64,000 nt of DNA from Clostridia bacterium (GTDB lineage Bacteria; Bacillota; Clostridia; Christensenellales; Borkfalkiaceae): NCBI GenBank assembly GCA_021203845.1, contig JAJQAK010000185.1, positions 1,731 through 65,730 on the forward strand, read 5' to 3'. Shown here one piece after another: positions 5,165 to 64,000 of the stretch. Numbering within the stretch: the stretch's first letter is position 1; each line of letters starts with the position of its first letter. The notes beneath the pieces are model-generated. The model was given only the letters and a program-made list of their open reading frames with translations, did not search any database and had not been told where the DNA came from. Position numbers and translations under genes: made by a program.

Positions 5165-6877
5165 CTATGCCGATTCGATTTTTACGGTAAGCCTGTTTTC
5201 AACGTCAAATACCGCTTTTTCTTCAAGGTTTACCGTTATGTACCTGTCCGTGTATTTATTTTCTGAAGGCTCGTCGCTCTCGTCCGTGCTTTTCGCCGCT
5301 TTGACGTTCATGTATGCCACGCCCGCCACTTTTGCGTTTATGTACGGTATCATCTGTTGTATGTAGATTGATTTGCCGGAGTCAAGCGTGTCAACATAAT
5401 CCTGAACGCCCTGCATCGTGAGCTCGGCGAGGTTTGTGGGATGGGTTTGATTCGGGTCGGTGAAAAGTGTGACTTCTACCCATACAAACACTTCGACAGG
5501 GCGCGCGAAGTTTATGGTAATGGAGCTGTTGTAGTCCGTGGGCACCTCCACGGACTCGGCCACGTCGTCGTTCGCCCCTCTCCATGTGAGTATTCCGGCG
5601 GGTTTGTAATTGTATATCTGCAAGGCTATGTCGGTCTTTTCTCCGCCGTCAACCACCACAAATATCGAGTGCGCGGGCATCCCTTCGGGGGAAACCTCAT
5701 CCGTATCGTTCTCGAAACATACGGCCGTCAATACCCCTTCGCAGTTTTGTAAAATCGCCGCCGATATACTCGCCGTCATCGCCGTTGACCTTGAGGCCTG
5801 TTTTGCCAAATATGACTGTCGCAACTGTTCGTCCGTTTCTCTTTCCGAGCCATATACCGCGATTGGCAAATTGCTTACCGCTTTAAGCCCCGTTATTTCG
5901 TTTATGATTGTATCGACCGCTCCGGCGTTCAGATGGTATTCGCCGTTTTCCTCGGTCTTGAACTGCATGACCGTGCTCATGCTTTCCGCCGTCATGTTCT
6001 TGCTGAAGTTCATCGCGGCGTTCGTGTACTCATCCCGCGAGGCGATTGATAATACGTCCGTACCGTTTAGGTCCTCTATGTTCGTTATGTATTTCGCGCT
6101 CTCGCCCTCGTTTATTTTTTCCAAAAGCCCTTCCAGTATTGCACGCCTTAAAGTCGTCTCATACTCGTCGTAGTAGCTCGATTCGACATTGTAATAAATT
6201 AACAGTTTTGCCGCGTATTGCTCGGTGTAATTGGGCGGCATTGAATAGGTATTCGTCTCATCATTATAATCCATTCCCAAGACGCCGTTTTCATAGTCGT
6301 GTATTATACCTATCTCGTCTTCGGTGAAAAGTCCGGCTTTTTCAAGCTCCAAATCTATGCTCGCCTTGGCGAGCGACGTGTACGCGTACTCCGTGTCACT
6401 CAACGTTATCGTGTACGTTTCTTCTTCAGAGGGCGACGGGATGCCGATAAGACATTTGTTGAATTCGTCCCTTGCGATATAGCCGTCGTTTACGGGCACC
6501 ATGTATATTGTGGGGCTCGCGCTCGTCGCTATTCTTGCCTCGTCTGCGGATATTCTCGTGCCGTCGTCGCCCGTGCATACGATATAATATTTTGTCGGCG
6601 TGCTTTCTTTTCTCGTGACTCCGGCAAACTGACAGGCGTAATCCAAATTTATGCCCTCGGCCGTGGAAGGAAACATATTAAAGTATACGGCCTCTATCGT
6701 TTCCCACATCTCCGCTATTTTGTCGGAAAGACTCGAAATGAGAACATTGATATAGCTTTTGGGATTCGTGGCGACGTCTATTCCCGTACCATTCTTTATT
6801 GCGAGTTGAAACTCCTCATATATGGCATCATAGCGTTTTCTGTTGAACCCCTGTTTGGTCACTCCGTAATCAGACAT
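5165..6877 (-). CDS. Baseplate J-like protein
   Basis: 570-aa ORF. Its size and position (after a gp25/W-like gene, before the fibres) are typical of the Baseplate_J family. Confidence 0.7.
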   Translation of the reverse strand: MSDYGVTKQGFNRKRYDAIYEEFQLAIKNGTGIDVATNPKSYINVLISSLSDKIAEMWETIEAVYFNMFPSTAEGINLDYACQFAGVTRKESTPTKYYIVCTGDDGTRISADEARIATSASPTIYMVPVNDGYIARDEFNKCLIGIPSPSEEETYTITLSDTEYAYTSLAKASIDLELEKAGLFTEDEIGIIHDYENGVLGMDYNDETNTYSMPPNYTEQYAAKLLIYYNVESSYYDEYETTLRRAILEGLLEKINEGESAKYITNIEDLNGTDVLSIASRDEYTNAAMNFSKNMTAESMSTVMQFKTEENGEYHLNAGAVDTIINEITGLKAVSNLPIAVYGSERETDEQLRQSYLAKQASRSTAMTASISAAILQNCEGVLTAVCFENDTDEVSPEGMPAHSIFVVVDGGEKTDIALQIYNYKPAGILTWRGANDDVAESVEVPTDYNSSITINFARPVEVFVWVEVTLFTDPNQTHPTNLAELTMQGVQDYVDTLDSGKSIYIQQMIPYINAKVAGVAYMNVKAAKSTDESDEPSENKYTDRYITVNLEEKAVFDVENRLTVKIESA

Positions 6878-7238
6878 CTATAACCACCTCCTCCGCGACC
6901 TGCGTGATGTCCGCTCCGTCCTCTATCGTGCATTTGAAACTCACGTCGCATTTTCTTGTACTCTTGTCTAAATCCACCGTCAAAGAATCGACGGAGACGA
7001 CTCCCTCGACCGACAATATCTCTTTTCTTATACGGCTCGCGAAAAGCGAAGTGGACGGGTTTTTCACGAAGACCTCCTCATAGTACGGCAACCCGAAATC
7101 GGGCCTCATGCGCCATTCGTTCAAAAACCACTTCAGCCGTATAATTATCGCCTGCGGTATGCTGTCCGTTATCTCGACGTCCCCCGTTATCGGCGACAAA
7201 TATAAGTCTCCGTCTTTTGTGATACGTAAGTCTTTCAT
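6870..7238 (-). CDS. Small baseplate protein (gpW/gp25/XkdS-like)
   Basis: 122-aa ORF overlapping the J-like gene by 8 nt. The pattern ...WRMRPDFGLPYYEEVF... is typical of this small baseplate family. Confidence 0.6.
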   Translation of the reverse strand: MKDLRITKDGDLYLSPITGDVEITDSIPQAIIIRLKWFLNEWRMRPDFGLPYYEEVFVKNPSTSLFASRIRKEILSVEGVVSVDSLTVDLDKSTRKCDVSFKCTIEDGADITQVAEEVVIDV

Positions 7239-51932: not shown

Positions 51933-52883
51933 TCAAGCGGCGATTAAGCCGCTCTTTGCGCTCATCCTTTCCTCTGCGTCCGTCATGTACTTGCATATCT
52001 TGCTCGCCTCCGTCACGGCTTTAAACAGCGCGTTCGGGTTTTCCTTGATTGCCACCTTCCACGAGTCGATATACGCGGCCGAGTTCTCTATGTGGCTTTC
52101 CGTTATCGCCACACCGAACTCCTGACCTATGAACAGCGACGCTATCTCGGCTATGAGTTCTTCCTGCGCATATGTCTTGCTCCCGAAATGACCACTCAAA
52201 TCTCTGTTCAGCCTTTCCTTTGCGCCCGTCGAGTGGGCTATCTCGTGCAATGCGACGCCATAGAAGTCATCGTCGCTCACGAAGTTCTTTCTTACCGGAA
52301 GATGTATCTCGTCTTTCATGGGCACGTAGCAGGCCTCGCCCCCTCCGTACACTATCTCGCACTCACTCTCACTCCAGTTCCCAATGAACTCGTCTATGCG
52401 GTCGTTTATGTTCTCCGTGTGTTTCACGATGTATTCGGGCATATCTTTTATGAGGCTACAGTTGAACACCATATAGTATTTGCGGACGGTGTACACATTG
52501 TCGCGCAGATATTTCTTCGCCTCGTCCGTGTCCATGTCCTCCAGCGTCGCCCTCGTAAACGCCTTATGCGTCATTTTGTCGTACGTCTCGAAATACTCGA
52601 CGGGCACTCCGGCGTTCGTGCCGAGACATTTCCCCTCCTCGTCTCTCTTGAACGACAGTCCCGCCTTCTTCATGGCATTGAACGTCATCCAGCGGCAGTC
52701 CTCATACCCCCTCGCCATTGATACGAGCGACAACAGCAATTCATTGTCGCCCCTATACGGCTTTCCATTTGGGGACATCATATATCCGCCTTTCCAGCCC
52801 TGTTTCCAAACACAACCCTTGTCAAGGTTTTCCATCAGCGTGTCCACCAGCATTTTCTGCGCTTTCGATAACTTTTCTTCCAT
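51933..52883 (-). CDS. ardC: ArdC-like anti-restriction protein (ssDNA-binding N-domain plus HExxH metallopeptidase)
   Basis: ATG at 52883 follows TTGAGAGGTGACGGT. The N-domain pattern is ...PYRGDNELLLSLVSMARGYEDCRWMTFNAMKKAG. The C-domain has VALHEIAHSTG (about 52225-52255). Confidence 0.75.
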   Translation of the reverse strand: MEEKLSKAQKMLVDTLMENLDKGCVWKQGWKGGYMMSPNGKPYRGDNELLLSLVSMARGYEDCRWMTFNAMKKAGLSFKRDEEGKCLGTNAGVPVEYFETYDKMTHKAFTRATLEDMDTDEAKKYLRDNVYTVRKYYMVFNCSLIKDMPEYIVKHTENINDRIDEFIGNWSESECEIVYGGGEACYVPMKDEIHLPVRKNFVSDDDFYGVALHEIAHSTGAKERLNRDLSGHFGSKTYAQEELIAEIASLFIGQEFGVAITESHIENSAAYIDSWKVAIKENPNALFKAVTEASKICKYMTDAEERMSAKSGLIAA

Positions 52884-52989
52884 ACCGTCACCTCTCAATC
52901 ATCTATCCTTTCGAGCGGGCTCATTGGCGCGGGTTCGCTCGCCTCCCGCGGACGACGGGTCGCCCCGTCGTTTCGCCTTTCTCTCCTCG

Positions 52990-53238: not shown

Positions 53239-53336
53239 ATCTCACCTCTCAAATATCTCACCCGTGACCTCGGTCAAGAGCCTTTCTCTCCCCCTCATCA
53301 CACCTATATTATAGCATATTGTATTTACCATGTCAA
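53239..53336 (-). promoter_or_regulatory. Early promoter-leader cassette 1
   Basis: The -35 TTGACA is at 53336-53331 and the -10 TGCTATAAT at 53313-53308. Then come the invariant box ATAGGTGTGATGAGGGGGAGAG and ...GATATTTGAGAGGTGAGATATG. Confidence 0.75.
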
Positions 53337-56185: not shown

Positions 56186-56283
56186 ATCTCACCTCTCAAA
56201 TATCTCACCCGTGACCTCGGTCAAGAGCCTTTCTCTCCCCCTCATCACATCTATATATTACCACTTTCCGATGTGTTTGTCAA
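56186..56283 (-). promoter_or_regulatory. Early promoter-leader cassette 2
   Basis: The -35 TTGACA is at 56283-56278 and the -10 TGGTAATAT at 56260-56255. The leader is identical to cassette 1 from ATAGATGTGATGAGGGGGAGAG through to the ATG. Confidence 0.7.
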
Positions 56284-58468: not shown

Positions 58469-58555
58469 ATCGCCACCTCTCAAACATCTATTTCTTGGGG
58501 TTTCCTCTCCCCCTCATCACACCTATATTATAGCATATCGGTTTTACCTTGTCAA
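58469..58555 (-). promoter_or_regulatory. Early promoter-leader cassette 3
   Basis: The -35 TTGACA is at 58555-58550 and the -10 TGCTATAAT at 58532-58527. It carries the box ATAGGTGTGATGAGGGGGAGAG. Confidence 0.75.
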
Positions 58556-59428: not shown

Positions 59429-59600
59429 AACTCACCTCTCAATATCTTATTTTCGGTTTCGAGCATTGATTAACTCTTTCGCACTAACGACCCCACCCGA
59501 CTCATTCCGACAGTGAAACCGCTGTCCCGCTACCATGTCTCTCAAATATCTCTCCCCCTCATCACATCTATATTATATCATGTTGTATTGCTCTTGTCAA
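59429..59600 (-). promoter_or_regulatory. Early promoter-leader cassette 4 (long-leader variant)
   Basis: The -35 TTGACA is at 59600-59595 and the -10 TGATATAAT at 59577-59572. The box ATAGATGTGATGAGGGGGAGAG is directly fused to ATATTTGAGAGA. About 100 extra nt follow before a second TTGAGAGGTGAGTTATG. Confidence 0.65.
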
Positions 59601-59723: not shown

Positions 59724-60068
59724 CTAATCTGTTTCAGACGCATCGTCCGTCTTTTCGTTCTTTGTTATTTCTATCCCTTTCTCTGAACTTACGTGAACCG
59801 TGAAATCCATGTCTTTGATTTCGGGATGACTGAACAGATATTCCCATACCATACGGTCGTGTCCGCTCATCGCGCCATTGCCGTTATATTCCCACTCGTC
59901 CGTCAAAACATAGTACGTCGCTATGAGTTGCATATCTGATTTGTAGACCTGCCAAAACTCCAGCTTTATCTCATCGTCTTCTATGCCTTTCCGTATCTGC
60001 AAATCGTCATAGAACGCAAACGGGCCACCGAAAAACTTCTCGATTGTATAAGTTTCAAGTATCGTCAT
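59724..60068 (-). CDS. Hypothetical early protein (F-S-HPEIK motif paralog)
   Basis: 114-aa ORF. Confidence 0.55.
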   Translation of the reverse strand: MTILETYTIEKFFGGPFAFYDDLQIRKGIEDDEIKLEFWQVYKSDMQLIATYYVLTDEWEYNGNGAMSGHDRMVWEYLFSHPEIKDMDFTVHVSSEKGIEITKNEKTDDASETD

Positions 60069-60471
60069 TCTCGACTCTCCTATTCCACCGCTCGCAAGCG
60101 TCCGTGCCGTTTATCGCCGAATAGAACCCGACGTCTGCGCCACAGCTTCCGCACTCTATCTGCGACTTCCCGAACACAATCCGGTAGTTTAAATTTATGT
60201 TTCCGCAAAACGGGCAGGCTTTGAGTTTCAGCGGCGGTTTTATGTCCGCGCCTTTCTGTTTAACAAAGCTGTTACCCTCGTGGATTTCGGATGTTCTTTT
60301 TCTCCATGCGACCGCAAGCTGCCACGGGTCAAATTCTTTCCCGACGAATATTGTATTTGCCCCGCACTTCGCATTTAAGCACTGTACGGCAAACATCTGT
60401 ACTCCTTTCTCTATTCTCGTCTCGCCTTCGCAAAACGGACAGCTCTTTGTCTCCGGTAATTTCTGTCCCAC
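60055..60471 (-). CDS. Tandem Lar-family (restriction alleviation) zinc-ribbon protein
   Basis: 138 aa with two copies of CPFC-(x)-C..CG...A..W(R/N)(K/R)R. The first copy has CPFCEGE...CLNAKCGA...AVAWRKRT. The second has CPFCGNI...CGSCGA...ACERWNRRV. Confidence 0.65.
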   Translation of the reverse strand: MGQKLPETKSCPFCEGETRIEKGVQMFAVQCLNAKCGANTIFVGKEFDPWQLAVAWRKRTSEIHEGNSFVKQKGADIKPPLKLKACPFCGNINLNYRIVFGKSQIECGSCGADVGFYSAINGTDACERWNRRVENDDT

Positions 60472-60490
60472 AGCATCTCTCCTCGTTTGT

Positions 60491-60901
60491 TTACTCCGCG
60501 TCTATCGCACGATTTGAGTACATGAAGTGGACTCCATGCATCCAATCATCAAAGTTCATTGAGCAACCCGTTCCATCGCCGACTCCAAACCCAAAGTCCG
60601 CACAACACACAAGCTCGCCGTCTTTAAAGCCGTTGAATGTCATCTTGCATCCCTTCCCGCCATAAGCCGAGGGCCTTATGACTGCGTTCTCTGTATAATC
60701 GCCCTCATCACTTAACACGGCGCGATTCCATGCGTCTTTGAGTTGCTTTCTAATGTCCATACCGGTCACCATATCGAAGCTGTTGACGGCCGTCTCGTAG
60801 TCCTTGCCGATTCCTTCCTCAATGTAAGCTATATCATTGTGTAAAAAACGCACATAGTCGATTGTCATCAGCAGTGTATCGTATTGCTGTTCATTCATCA
60901 T
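60491..60901 (-). CDS. Hypothetical early protein
   Basis: ATG at 60901 (MMNEQQYDTL) follows GGAGGTGTGAC and lies one nt after the upstream stop. Confidence 0.55.
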   Translation of the reverse strand: MMNEQQYDTLLMTIDYVRFLHNDIAYIEEGIGKDYETAVNSFDMVTGMDIRKQLKDAWNRAVLSDEGDYTENAVIRPSAYGGKGCKMTFNGFKDGELVCCADFGFGVGDGTGCSMNFDDWMHGVHFMYSNRAIDAE

Positions 60902-60902
60902 G

Positions 60903-61184
60903 TCACACCTCCATAACCGCCGCGATAACCGTTGCAATCCCGTTTATCGCAAGCCTCATTTCTTCCTCGTCGCCTTTGCGAACGTTGTTATTGAAAAGGT
61001 TGACGATTTCCTCACCGAGTGACTTTGCGTCTGAACAATTCTTAATCGCCTCTTTGAGATACCAAACAAAGTCATCCATGAATCCGTACGCCGCCCCACA
61101 AACCCCAAAATCTTCTTCTTTTTCAGTGCAAAGCTCCGAGATTTCAGTCATTTCCCAATTCGTTATGTTTCCAAGTTTCGCCAT
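60903..61184 (-). CDS. Hypothetical early protein
   Basis: 93-aa ORF, first gene behind cassette 5. Confidence 0.55.
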   Translation of the reverse strand: MAKLGNITNWEMTEISELCTEKEEDFGVCGAAYGFMDDFVWYLKEAIKNCSDAKSLGEEIVNLFNNNVRKGDEEEMRLAINGIATVIAAVMEV

Positions 61185-61283
61185 ATTTCACCTCTCAAAT
61201 CTCTATTCCCGTGGGAGTTTCAAGCACCTTCGCTCTCCCCCTCATCACATCTATATGTTACCATATTTCATGCCTCTTGTCAA
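61185..61283 (-). promoter_or_regulatory. Early promoter-leader cassette 5
   Basis: The -35 TTGACA is at 61283-61278 and the -10 TGGTAACAT at 61260-61255. It carries the box ATAGATGTGATGAGGGGGAGAG and ...GATTTGAGAGGTGAAATATG. Confidence 0.7.
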
Positions 61284-61330
61284 TAGTTTTTTGCAAAATA
61301 TTTGCGTTTTCTGAAAAATATTTTTTTCCA

Positions 61331-61364
61331 CAATAAGAAAAGACCCACGAATTTCTTGCGGGCC
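61331..61364 (-). terminator. Candidate terminator GGCCCGC-loop-GUGGGUC-UUUUCUUAUUG
   Basis: A 7-bp stem with two G-U pairs on the minus RNA (61364-61358 and 61348-61342) and a U-tract at 61341-61335, after the stop at 61407. Confidence 0.5.
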
Positions 61365-61406
61365 TTCCCTATGTTTTGAGAGGTTAAAGTATAATCATAT
61401 TTGTTG

Positions 61407-61649
61407 TCACTTCTCGGCCATCTCGACCAAATGTATCTTGGTAAGAAATTCACAAAACGTTACGACTGCATCGTGCATATCTTCAAAATACAAACCAATC
61501 AGGTCGTCATCCTTGCTAAAATCTGTTTTGTTGTATTTTATGTCATATGTCGCGTATGTCCTCCCGTTCGGGAATTTGAACTTCACGAACTTCGAGCCAT
61601 CCTCCCACACCGCGGCCAATGCGCAATCGAGTTTAACTATGTACTCCAT
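61407..61649 (-). CDS. Hypothetical early protein
   Basis: 80-aa ORF. Confidence 0.55.
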   Translation of the reverse strand: MEYIVKLDCALAAVWEDGSKFVKFKFPNGRTYATYDIKYNKTDFSKDDDLIGLYFEDMHDAVVTFCEFLTKIHLVEMAEK

Positions 61650-61657
61650 AATTCACC

Positions 61658-61915
61658 TCACATAAGTCCGGTTTCTTTGAGTTCTTCGATGAACTCCATA
61701 CAGGTCTTTTTGAACTCTTCGATACGTTCTGCTGTAAATATTTCAGGAAGATACTCCGAAAATATGAGCTCCCCGTTTCTATATGTGGCAATAAACCCGC
61801 TCGCCGCCCCGGTGAATATAACGTTATCATCCGTTTCCCGTCCGGGATGCGGAGTTCCAAAATGCATCGTGGCCACAACTCCGCCATCCAGTCTTGCTGT
61901 CAACGCGTGCTTCAT
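61658..61915 (-). CDS. Hypothetical early protein
   Basis: 85-aa ORF. Confidence 0.55.
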   Translation of the reverse strand: MKHALTARLDGGVVATMHFGTPHPGRETDDNVIFTGAASGFIATYRNGELIFSEYLPEIFTAERIEEFKKTCMEFIEELKETGLM

Positions 61916-62187
61916 TTCTCGCCTCCTATGTCTACAGGGTTTTCTTCGTGGAGTTCATTCCACTTGTCCTGTATTTGATAGATATTGAGTCCCTTTATTT
62001 CTTCCGCAGGTAAATCGTTGTAAGTTACCACGCTCTTGTACCCATGCCTCTTTTCTGCCGGAGTGAGGTACTCGTCATTGTTGCGAGCCTCACTTATCGC
62101 CTCGTTCTTATCCTTCCCGAAGTAAAGCACGAAACGCTCATTGTCCTCATTGATTTCATACGCCTTGTAATACCTTATCATTTCCAT
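61912..62187 (-). CDS. Hypothetical early protein
   Basis: 91-aa ORF with a 4-nt overlap with the next gene. Confidence 0.55.
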   Translation of the reverse strand: MEMIRYYKAYEINEDNERFVLYFGKDKNEAISEARNNDEYLTPAEKRHGYKSVVTYNDLPAEEIKGLNIYQIQDKWNELHEENPVDIGGEK

Positions 62188-62200
62188 ACTGTTCCCCTCC

Positions 62201-62443
62201 TTATGCCGCGTCTCGCATCATTGTAAGATAATTTGAAATGGGGTACATGAACTCGCTTCTGTTGCGTCTGTTCGTCCAGTAAATCATAAGCTCCTTCAAG
62301 TCCACCCTTGCCACGAGCCTGTCTCCGCGCCCCCTGTTGACAAAGAACATGAGGTTGTCTTGGGGGTTTTGGGTTTCCCCCTCGACGGCATACCTGACCT
62401 TCATGTCATAGATTCCCAAATATTCACTGTCCATAAATTCCAT
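62201..62443 (-). CDS. Hypothetical early protein
   Basis: 80-aa ORF. Confidence 0.55.
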   Translation of the reverse strand: MEFMDSEYLGIYDMKVRYAVEGETQNPQDNLMFFVNRGRGDRLVARVDLKELMIYWTNRRNRSEFMYPISNYLTMMRDAA

Positions 62444-62455
62444 ACCGTCACCTCC

Positions 62456-62782
62456 TCAAGCCACGAAATCCGCAACCTTGCCATTGCCGCAGTAGAGGTC
62501 TCTCTCTATCGCAGGCATTACCATGCGTCCGAATCTTACGTGTATCTCCTCAAGTTGCTCCTGAGTGAAGTACCCATACTCCCAGCCGTGTCCGAACTCT
62601 GCGAGCCCATAGAACTCGTATTTGCCGTTTTCGAGCTTATTTCCCTCAAGCACGAGCCATGTCCCAACTCCGTACGGATTGAAGTACTTTACAAGTACCT
62701 CAGCGTCGTTCCCCTTTCCATCCTGCGAGTAAATCGGATGTTTTGCCAACTTTTTCTCAATCTCTTTCGTCATCAACTTCAT
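62456..62782 (-). CDS. DUF2958-like protein (family common on conjugative elements and in anti-restriction contexts)
   Basis: ATG at 62782 (MKLMTKEIEKKLAKHPIYSQDGKGNDAEVLVKYFNPYGVGTWLVLEG...FYGLAEFGHGWEYGYFTQEQLEEI) follows GGGAGGTGACGAT. Confidence 0.6.
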   Translation of the reverse strand: MKLMTKEIEKKLAKHPIYSQDGKGNDAEVLVKYFNPYGVGTWLVLEGNKLENGKYEFYGLAEFGHGWEYGYFTQEQLEEIHVRFGRMVMPAIERDLYCGNGKVADFVA

Positions 62783-62798
62783 ATCGTCACCTCCCAAA

Positions 62799-63110
62799 TC
62801 AATAGTTATGCCATTCATCGGCAAGGTTGTCAAGCATTACTTGAGCCTCCCTCTTTTTCCCGCCGAAAATCGCACCGAGAACTTTTCTTATCTCATTTTC
62901 CGCATTGCGAACGCGGTCAAAAGTGTACATATCAACACGCCCATAATCACACCAGTCGGCAACCTTGTACATTTGATTGAGTACCCACTTCTCCGCACGA
63001 AGCTCACCGGCTTTCACCTTCGCATAAATCACATTGACCTGCCTACGAGTCACATCGGTTTCAGTCCAATGAGCAACCTTATCACCAACCCTACATTCTA
63101 CATCCTTCAT
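62799..63110 (-). CDS. Hypothetical early protein
   Basis: ATG at 63110 (MKDVECRVGDK) follows TTGAGAGGTGAGCGT. Confidence 0.6.
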   Translation of the reverse strand: MKDVECRVGDKVAHWTETDVTRRQVNVIYAKVKAGELRAEKWVLNQMYKVADWCDYGRVDMYTFDRVRNAENEIRKVLGAIFGGKKREAQVMLDNLADEWHNY

Positions 63111-63200
63111 ACGCTCACCTCTCAAATATCTTTTCTCTTTCGGAGGTTCCCTTCCCCCTCATCACATCTATATTATAGCATCTCCCATCCCTCTTGTCAA
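63111..63200 (-). promoter_or_regulatory. Early promoter-leader cassette 6
   Basis: The -35 TTGACA is at 63200-63195 and the -10 TGCTATAAT at 63177-63172. It carries the box ATAGATGTGATGAGGGGGAAGG and ...GATATTTGAGAGGTGAGCGTATG. Confidence 0.75.
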
Positions 63201-63253
63201 TAGTTTCACGCAAGTTTTTTTTAAATATTTTCAAATTATTTTCTTGAAATATG

Positions 63254-63282
63254 TTGACATCTGCAAGTGTGTATGATAGAAT
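63254..63282 (+). promoter_or_regulatory. Plus-strand consensus promoter TTGACA-17-TGATAGAAT, the only one seen on this strand
   Basis: The -35 is at 63254-63259 and the -10 at 63277-63282, with an extended TG at 63274-63275. It sits back-to-back with cassette 6, with about 54 nt between the two -35 boxes. Confidence 0.6.
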
Positions 63283-63288
63283 GGTTAT

Positions 63289-63375
63289 ATCAAAACAGAT
63301 TACACGACAATCTCAAATATCTATTTTTCTATCACAAAAGAACGCCCTCGGTTGAAATGACCGGGGTGCTCTTTA
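63289..63375 (+). ncRNA. Candidate ~85-nt sRNA with a 12-nt seed complementary to the early-leader RBS region
   Basis: It would start about 7 nt after the -10. It contains UCUCAAAUAUCU (63311-63322). It ends at the hairpin CCUCGG/CCGGGG (63346-63351 and 63361-63366) followed by UGCUCUUU. The extent is inferred, not measured. Confidence 0.35.
63340..63374. terminator. Hairpin usable in both orientations
   Basis: On the minus RNA it reads CCCCGG-loop-CCG(A)GGG followed by CGUUCUUUUGUG, after the stop at 63418. On the plus RNA it is a 6-bp stem with one G-U pair followed by UGCUCUUU. Confidence 0.4.
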
Positions 63376-63417
63376 CAACAAATAAAAGGAGCTATATATA
63401 TGACATACGGAGGTAGG

Positions 63418-63711
63418 TCACCGTATGGATATAATGCATTTTAAATGGCCGTTCTCATCCGTGTAGTATCTCGGCACAAGCTCGCCGGTTTCGTTTAAAA
63501 AAGCATCCATAGCTTTCCGAGAACTCAACAACTCGTCAAACAACGCCTTATAGTATAGTTTCTCCGCCTGCCTACCCGTAAGTTTTCCGGGCTTTACTTT
63601 TATAGATGTTTGCGGATTTACGCACAGAAAACCACCTTCGTAAAGACGCTTCAATATCGTCCATGCGCCTTGGTGATATATCTCTTTGCCTTGAGAGTTC
63701 AACTCGTCCAT
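63418..63711 (-). CDS. Hypothetical protein
   Basis: 97-aa ORF downstream of the methyltransferase. Confidence 0.55.
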   Translation of the reverse strand: MDELNSQGKEIYHQGAWTILKRLYEGGFLCVNPQTSIKVKPGKLTGRQAEKLYYKALFDELLSSRKAMDAFLNETGELVPRYYTDENGHLKCIISIR

Positions 63712-63715
63712 GTCT

Positions 63716-64000
63716 CTAATTAACCCACTTAATTATCGGGTCACCGCGGAAACCCTTCTCCCATACATACCAACCGAAAGCCATCGCACTATTCCCGTAC
63801 TTCACAAAGTCACCGTTTTTCGCGGCTTGTATACGGGACGAGCATACATACAGCGTCCTAAACGGCTGATTGTCGAACAATTCTCTCCGCTCCTTGCTTT
63901 CCAAAAAGGTGAGCTTCAAAAACATGGCAAGTTTCCCACCATCGGGAAGTAGATTCAACCCATGCTCTATGAACTGTCGTGCTATCTTGTACGGGGGATT
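63716..64000 (-). CDS. DNA N6-adenine methyltransferase, C-terminal part (gene continues past the right edge)
   Basis: The frame stays open to nt 64000. The reverse complement of 63959-64000 reads NPPYKIARQFIEHG (catalytic motif IV NPPY), followed by LNLLPDGGKLAMFLKLTFLE.... The 'M' in the track is an internal TTG. Confidence 0.65.
   Translation of the reverse strand, partial: NPPYKIARQFIEHGLNLLPDGGKLAMFLKLTFLESKERRELFDNQPFRTLYVCSSRIQAAKNGDFVKYGNSAMAFGWYVWEKGFRGDPIIKWVN

Follow-up and report, generated by a model that had tools for sequence, protein, structure and literature searches.

A candidate anti-leader RNA opposite the early cassettes of a phage contig

The shut-off of phage early genes is known mainly through proteins and transcription. 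T4 RegA is a protein that represses many early mRNAs by way of an AU-rich site in the initiation region. To our knowledge, RNA control of a phage's own class of early messages is hardly documented, and we know of no case in phages of Gram-positive gut bacteria. Small phage RNAs that pair with ribosome-binding regions have nonetheless been described: the sar RNA of P22, 68–69 nt long, has its own promoter, pairs with a ribosome-binding region and limits an early protein, and the c4 RNA of P1 and P7 (immI; Rfam C4, RF01695) pairs in trans at the ribosome-binding region of the phage's own mRNA (PMC12197685). The OOP RNA of lambda (~77 nt) is transcribed from its own constitutive promoter, convergently with the upstream operon, and ends at an intrinsic terminator (PMC12197685). 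The early regions of T4-type phages are also known to contain PeSL cassettes, in which a stem-loop terminator and a strong early promoter are repeated between ORFan genes, and recombination at these repeats shuffles the genes (PMC2839356, PMC4122927). We describe here a locus that recalls each of these systems, at which we tentatively prefer the reading that a promoter facing backward, P+, makes a short RNA that would pair in trans with the early leaders and lower their translation.

The window (the whole stretch of DNA analysed, 64,000 nucleotides) corresponds to positions 1731–65730 of a 73,661-bp contig belonging to a metagenome-assembled genome of 1.7 Mb. The GC content of the contig is 48.6%, versus 52.7% across the whole bin, and its minus strand holds nearly all of the long ORFs. 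The early region, at 53–63 kb, repeats one promoter-leader cassette six times (c1 to c6). Each cassette, read on the minus strand, consists of a stem-loop terminator and an A/T-rich upstream stretch; TTTGCAAAAAACTATTGACA, 17 nt and TGnTATAAT; an almost invariant 5' box, ATAGATGTGATGAGGGGGAGAG, and a variable stretch; and (A)ATAGATATTTGAGAGGTGA, 3–4 nt and the ATG. The locus considered here takes in cassette 6 and the DNA upstream of it and comprises the following features.

63108..63229, minus strand: cassette 6, with upstream element, promoter (63200-63172), 5' box, leader, SD and ATG; its copy of the leader 12-mer is at 63131-63120, and the ATG at 63110 opens a 103-aa ORFan
63233..63249, plus strand: UP-element-like A/T tract AAATTATTTTCTTGAAA, immediately 5' of the -35 hexamer of P+
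63254..63282, plus strand: promoter P+, with TTGACA at 63254-63259, a 17-nt spacer, TG at 63274-75 and TAGAAT at 63277-82 (extended -10)
63289..63375, plus strand: predicted non-coding transcript of ~87 nt, with its putative start at A63289, 7 nt past the -10 hexamer
63311..63325, plus strand: anti-leader seed UCUCAAAUAUCUAUU, complement of the leader consensus AAUAGAUAUUUGAGA
63326..63337, plus strand: U-rich extension UUUCUAUCACA, with G.U-containing pairing to the invariant leader 5' box UGUGAUGAGGGGGA
63337..63374 (core 63344-63369): hairpin lying between an A-tract and a U-tract; terminator for the minus-strand gene 63418..63711 and candidate bidirectional terminator that would also end the plus-strand RNA
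63385..63444, plus strand: AAAGGAG-N8-ATG and 14-codon ORF (ORF part 63400-63444), reached only upon read-through of the hairpin
63418..63711, minus strand: 97-aa ORFan, last gene of the methyltransferase operon

Followed along the minus strand, the spacer between the two ORFans (63111-63417) begins after the stop codon of the 97-aa ORFan (63418) with a 43-nt 3' UTR, continues through the terminator hairpin core (63369-63344) and its tail UUCUUUUGUG, and then contains a seventh copy of the leader motif (63325-63311) and a unique 63-nt segment (63310-63248) before the complete cassette 6. A similarity search with the 63-nt segment found nothing elsewhere in the genome. This segment contains exactly P+, from the -35 hexamer to about +22, and the homology of cassette 6 to the other cassettes starts at about 63247. 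The cassette-6 promoter and P+ are arranged back to back, their -35 hexamers 53 bp apart. The 3' UTR of the 97-aa ORFan (63375-63417, minus strand, 43 nt) carries two anti-SD-like motifs, ACCUCC and GCUCCUUU, and two SD-like sites are therefore present on the plus strand. The operon upstream of the locus (L124:447-3423, minus strand) encodes three DNA methyltransferases (phrog_799, phrog_67 and phrog_359). A PAPS-reductase-like protein (phrog_424; L124:6409-7236, minus strand) is encoded further upstream, past the promoter of the methyltransferase operon (about 69439 in window numbering), the leader of which has neither the box nor the 12-mer. A replication origin at the locus was also considered and dropped, since the GC skew is monotonic there, with no inflection.

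With a rule requiring an exact TTGACA, 17 nt, TGn and at least five matches of six in the -10 hexamer, P+ was the sole site on the plus strand of the whole contig, versus eight on the minus strand, in agreement with the preliminary description, which had presented it as the only plus-strand promoter. A first-order Markov model of the same composition gives a chance expectation of 0.005 such sites per contig, both strands together, so P+ is very probably a genuine sigma-A promoter; in the 304-nt AT-rich spacer, the expectation would be ~1.5e-4, as a rough estimate. P+ shares the signature of the phage's own minus-strand promoters, and the A/T tract in front of it is a near match, at 15/17 positions and with a register offset of 1 nt, to the UP-element consensus (AAAWWTWTTTTNNNAAA). 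The possibility that P+ originated as an inverted cassette was rejected, as nothing beyond the hexamers is common to P+ and the cassettes. Host promoters in three host-family genomes (G008, G087 and G191; loci L048, L049 and L050) contain TTGCGAAAAACTATTGACA or a close variant (TTGCATAAAACTATTGACA, TTTCGTAAAACTATTGACA) and are followed by the CIRCE operator TTAGCACTC-N9-GAGTGCTAA. The sharing of TTGCGAAAAACTATTGACA with these promoters shows, at the level of sequence similarity, that the phage early promoters imitate a strong host promoter type with an extended upstream motif.

The leader 12-mer, AGATATTTGAGA, is present in five exact copies (53247, 56194, 59540, 63120 and 63311) and in two copies with one mismatch (58478 and 61193), and all seven are on the minus strand; the mean number in shuffled sequences was 0.38, and none of 100 shuffles reached seven. 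The four exact leader copies and two near-matches reported initially were thus all recovered. At 63311-63322 the plus strand reads UCUCAAAUAUCU, and the match to the leader family there spans 15 nt (63311-63325, AATAGATATTTGAGA), beyond the 12 described previously. This is the sole copy agreeing with the leader consensus at 15/15 positions, and the only one with no SD after the motif. Its counterparts in the other leaders, together with the box, are listed below.

53247..53258, minus strand: target motif in leader c1, at -20..-9 of the AUG
56194..56205, minus strand: target motif in leader c2
58478..58489, minus strand: target motif in leader c3, with an A-to-G change that still allows G.U pairing (18-19 bp in total)
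59540..59551, minus strand: target motif in leader c4, at the 5' end of the leader and adjoining the box
61193..61204, minus strand: target motif in leader c5, with one mismatch
53286-53307, 56233-56254, 58505-58526, 59550-59571, 61233-61254 and 63150-63171, minus strand: box GUGAUGAGGGGGAGAG

Leader c4 (59429-59551, minus strand) is 137 nt long and has a degenerate second copy of the motif at the RBS, AAGATATT-GAGAGGTGA (about 59432-59445); the insert between its two copies, ~107 nt and GC-richer, may hold a 29-32-codon ORF or a structured element. SD-like sequences and 5' stem-loops that stabilise mRNAs have been described in Bacillus, and the box, which is predicted to form the 5' end of all six early mRNAs, looks like such a 5'-terminal stem-loop or SD-like stabiliser by analogy. 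In the MFE folds, the partners of its G-run differ: CUCUU in c1 and c2, CCCC in c3, CUCCC in c5 and CCUCC in c6. An internal RBS-motif copy with no promoter, AGATGATTGAGAGGTGA (52888-52904, minus strand), lies ahead of a 321-aa gene (51933..52898), which would be a seventh, weaker target, with a predicted duplex of -21.0 kcal/mol. In another contig of the same bin (C103; 14.5 kb, GC 48%), which encodes an SSB, TTGACA-17-TATAAT and the RBS GGATATTTGAGAGGTGAcaatATG are found on the minus strand at ~6850-7005, before a gene resembling a nuclease by eye. The RBS motif is therefore also present outside the contig studied here, and C103 may be a further piece of the same phage or a second mobile element.

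The transcript predicted from 63289 to about 63375, about 87 nt, is close to the ~85 nt initially proposed. Its predicted fold (MFE -20.3 kcal/mol, z = -3.16) places an open middle between a weak hairpin at the 5' end and a strong one at the 3' end, where the A-tract is paired with the U-tract, and the plus strand before the 3' hairpin has no SD and no usable ORF. Two plus-strand ORFs (63251..63355 and 63267..63416) were set aside because both begin 5' of the predicted transcription start. A known RNA family was ruled out by an Rfam scan of the window, which found none at gathering score; at E values up to 10, the region 62900-63750 gave only four chance-level matches, with C4 absent.

The seed is predicted to be mostly single-stranded and to take 1.5 kcal/mol to open, and the duplex energies are -13.7 kcal/mol for 12 bp and -17.0 kcal/mol for 15 bp. 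When the flanks are included, c3 gives 18-19 bp with G.U at the variant position (-24.2 kcal/mol), c6 gives 12 + 9 bp with a bulge (-25.0 kcal/mol), and c1, c2, c4 and c5 give about -17 kcal/mol each. After subtraction of the opening energies, the net values are -17.9 (c3), -16.4 (c6), -11.5 (c5) and -9.7 kcal/mol (the RBS copy of c4), and about -4.6 kcal/mol each for c1 and c2. With accessibility taken into account, the pairing is thus predicted to be good in three leaders and moderate in one, but weak in c1 and c2. The paired stretch extends from -20 to -9 of the AUG, within the 30S footprint. The 12-mer had been said to precede and overlap the SD; it does overlap the GAGA of the extended SD, but the complementarity halts right before the core GGUGA, and it does not reach the AUG, except for 5 nt in c3. 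The duplex is AU-rich.

When the open part of the RNA was slid along the whole minus-strand transcriptome, the 5' end of c4 ranked first among non-self sites, c6 third and c3 fourth, the second being an unrelated window (67946..67907); the start of the c2 gene and the internal RBS near 52900 were also among the ten best sites, at lower ranks. As the first percentile over all phage sites was already -17.1 kcal/mol, the raw duplexes of about -17 kcal/mol lie only at that percentile. The segment 3' of the seed (AUUUUUCUAUCACA) pairs with the 5' box at -10.3 kcal/mol, a value equalled by 3% of shuffles and by 11% of U-rich 18-mers, and in c4 the seed and box pairings together form a 27-nt duplex (-27.2 kcal/mol). 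This predicted extension of the pairing to the 5' box is only weakly significant, a weak hint. The seed flank also matches codons 7-10 of the c2 gene over 11 nt, but this was discarded as being at chance level.

The preliminary description regarded the hairpin and its U-rich tail as a possible end of the RNA. The hairpin (63346-63366, followed on the plus strand by TGCTCTTTAC) is indeed stable on both strands (-19.4 kcal/mol on the plus strand versus -18.0 on the minus strand), but the minus tail UUCUUUUGUG is good, whereas the U-tract of the plus tail (UCUUUAC) is weak. The terminators of the other five cassettes are more stable in the minus form than in the plus complement, by 0.2-10.6 kcal/mol, because of G.U pairs, and only the hairpin of this locus, out of the six, has a plus form no less stable than its minus form. 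This near-symmetry of the predicted stabilities fits selection for bidirectional termination. With a rough terminator score, which gave only negative values and was used for ranking only, the hairpin scored no worse on the plus than on the minus strand, with both orientations below the other five terminators. Some P+ transcripts would probably pass the hairpin, and the read-through RNA would be antisense to the 97-aa ORFan (63418..63711). At positions 66401-66422 of the contig (L124:1402-1423), the plus strand has a strong terminator-like hairpin (CCGTCCGGAAATTTTCGGGCGG, then TATTTTTCTT), located ~690 bases past the end of the window, 1.4 kb downstream of P+ and within the minus-strand methyltransferase operon; judging from its sequence, it could be the end of a read-through antisense RNA.

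Searches for relatives covered proteins, cassettes and host genomes. Both flanking proteins were singletons among 5.8 billion clustered proteins, and a megablast of 60000-64000 against phage records returned nothing. A 17-mer of the box gave only chance matches in IMG/VR, a 20-mer had no match in metagenome and genome contigs, and the 18 loci retrieved with a relaxed box-gap-RBS pattern were all unrelated. The methyltransferase relatives had no cassettes, and the early regions of the terminase relatives (identity of at most 69%) contained one different promoter and zero cassettes. In 400 host-family genomes, six matches were inspected: five were look-alikes of the host promoter type, three of them with CIRCE downstream, and the sixth (G186) was a lone cassette-like terminator-promoter unit unrelated to the locus.

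The direct orientation of the seventh copy is explained equally well by a reading that we consider rather unlikely as an account of present use, in which the 15-mer marks the junction where recombination between repeated cassettes, similar to that of PeSL mini-circles, put in or swapped a promoter module, while P+ would act locally and the pairing with leaders would be incidental. The local roles might be convergent or antisense transcription by read-through against the 3' end of the methyltransferase operon, collision with polymerases leaking through the terminator, or supercoiling coupling with the cassette-6 promoter. All seven copies are on one strand, the seventh pointing the same way as those of the leaders; a 191-nt promoter module sits between the copies at 63120-31 and 63311-22, and c4 offers a parallel in the pair of copies around its 107-nt insert, one adjoining the box and the degenerate one at the RBS. 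These two sets of bracket-like direct repeats are the only hints of cassette recombination here. The homology of the motif stops exactly at GAGA, where an SD would be expected next, and the weak plus U-tract, with the good terminator-like site 1.4 kb on, fits a locally acting promoter. In T4-type phages, recombination is known to act on terminator and early-promoter cassettes that lie between ORFan genes (PMC2839356), and the bracketing direct repeats and this precedent therefore make a scar origin of the seventh copy likely, by sequence and by analogy. However, origin is separate from present use, and a scar is compatible with later use in trans. Moreover, one would not expect a decaying remnant to match the consensus better than every other member of its family, the uniquely symmetric stability of the hairpin would be left unexplained, and no target in cis that obviously called for control was identified.

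It is also conceivable, though we think it improbable, that there is no functional RNA, P+ being silent or neutral, for example through occlusion by the cassette-6 promoter complex, and that motif and promoter-like site alike are evolutionary debris, the early region being hyper-plastic. The singleton status of both flanking genes and the surroundings of ORFan genes and duplicated cassettes would suit such debris, but a site of this kind is hardly expected by chance, it has the signature of the phage minus-strand promoters, and a strong antisense promoter without a function would carry a cost. Far less credible is an mRNA for a micro-peptide, with P+ transcripts reading through the hairpin and the 14-codon ORF (MTYGGRSPYGYNAF) being translated. 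The AAAGGAG-N8-ATG and ORF that the preliminary description had offered as a read-through alternative are present, their spacing is good, both RBS and ATG are in the 43-nt non-coding spacer past the minus-strand stop codon, and a weak plus terminator-like site comes next (63471-63488). However, the ORF runs across the last nine codons of the gene on the minus strand, its peptide is neither hydrophobic nor signal-like, the RBS is paired with GCUCUUU in the predicted 212-nt fold, and a 110-nt leader with a strong hairpin would precede the ORF. Other readings share the remainder of the probability. As for the trans-acting antisense RNA first suggested in the preliminary description, which is our preferred reading, it agrees with a promoter beyond chance expectation, the lack of an SD or ORF before the hairpin, the predicted open seed, the symmetric hairpin and duplexes within the 30S footprint, but it is weakened by the halt before GGUGA, the two weak leaders out of six, the poor plus U-tract and a promoter of host type with the same timing as its targets.

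According to the preferred reading, P+ would be a real promoter for the host sigma-A, the sole one facing backward in the phage, and would yield a short non-coding RNA of ~87 nt. Its open middle (63311-63337) would be the antisense of a sequence common to the six early cassettes, pairing with AAUAGAUAUUUGAGA, which adjoins and overlaps the SD, and forming a weaker duplex, by way of G.U pairs, with the invariant 5' box. The duplex, lying inside the 30S footprint, would reduce initiation, and the 18-27-bp duplexes with c3, c4 and c6 might permit cleavage by RNase III. The early genes would thereby be dampened in translation as a class, or shut off with a delay. P+ is of the constitutive host type, so the RNA would be made alongside its six target mRNAs and would be outnumbered by them. 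The seed most likely derived from a leader fragment left by recombination and was later captured downstream of P+.

The wider proposal, that in a virulent-type Clostridia phage one small RNA controls a whole class of early operons with a seed born from a fragment of a targeted leader, caught behind a promoter of reversed direction, is one that we put forward as doubtful. If it were true, a recombination scar could turn into a regulator, and the RNA would be a regulator evolved from a copy of its target. The promoter, seed and hairpin together occupy about 120 bp, and with its six defined targets this compact locus lends itself to easy testing with reporters. If instead the RNA were inert, the locus would still record PeSL-like cassette shuffling outside the T4 group.

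The proposed RNA would have in common with trans-acting base-pairing sRNAs its own promoter, the absence of coding capacity, a predicted open seed and a 3' hairpin, albeit with a weak U-tract. It resembles the c4 RNA of P1 and P7 in acting in trans and in pairing near the RBS of the phage's own mRNAs. However, c4 is cut out of the transcript that also carries its single target, ant, and its pairing sequences are in loops, whereas the RNA proposed here would have its own promoter on the opposite strand, a linear seed and six target operons, and its phage would have a Gram-positive host. It falls outside the C4 family (RF01695), since the Rfam model found no match and its production differs. Like sar, it would be short, with its own promoter and pairing at a ribosome-binding region. 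However, sar is made from the strand opposite its target and is therefore fully complementary to it, whereas the RNA proposed here overlaps the RBS of none of its targets and carries only a 12-27-nt copy of target sequence. With OOP it would share a similar size, its own promoter, a convergent arrangement and a hairpin end, but OOP works in cis, together with RNase III, and covers the 3' end of cII, whereas the terminated form here would end 43 nt before the upstream gene, with overlap only upon read-through. The overlap of the 87-nt form is limited to the upstream operon's terminator and 3' UTR, with no RBS included, and, as judged from its position, the proposed RNA is not cis-antisense to any RBS in the manner of sar or OOP. 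The class-wide repression of early genes would recall RegA, with an RNA as the effector in place of a protein, and the proposed RNA, if real, would be the RNA counterpart of that T4 repressor. The PeSL cassettes are the closest analogue both of the six cassettes and of the scar origin of the seventh motif: here too a stem-loop terminator followed by a strong sigma-70-type early promoter is repeated, six times and in the same orientation, between small, putatively non-essential genes, and the cassettes of this phage additionally carry a conserved 5' box and an RBS-proximal motif.
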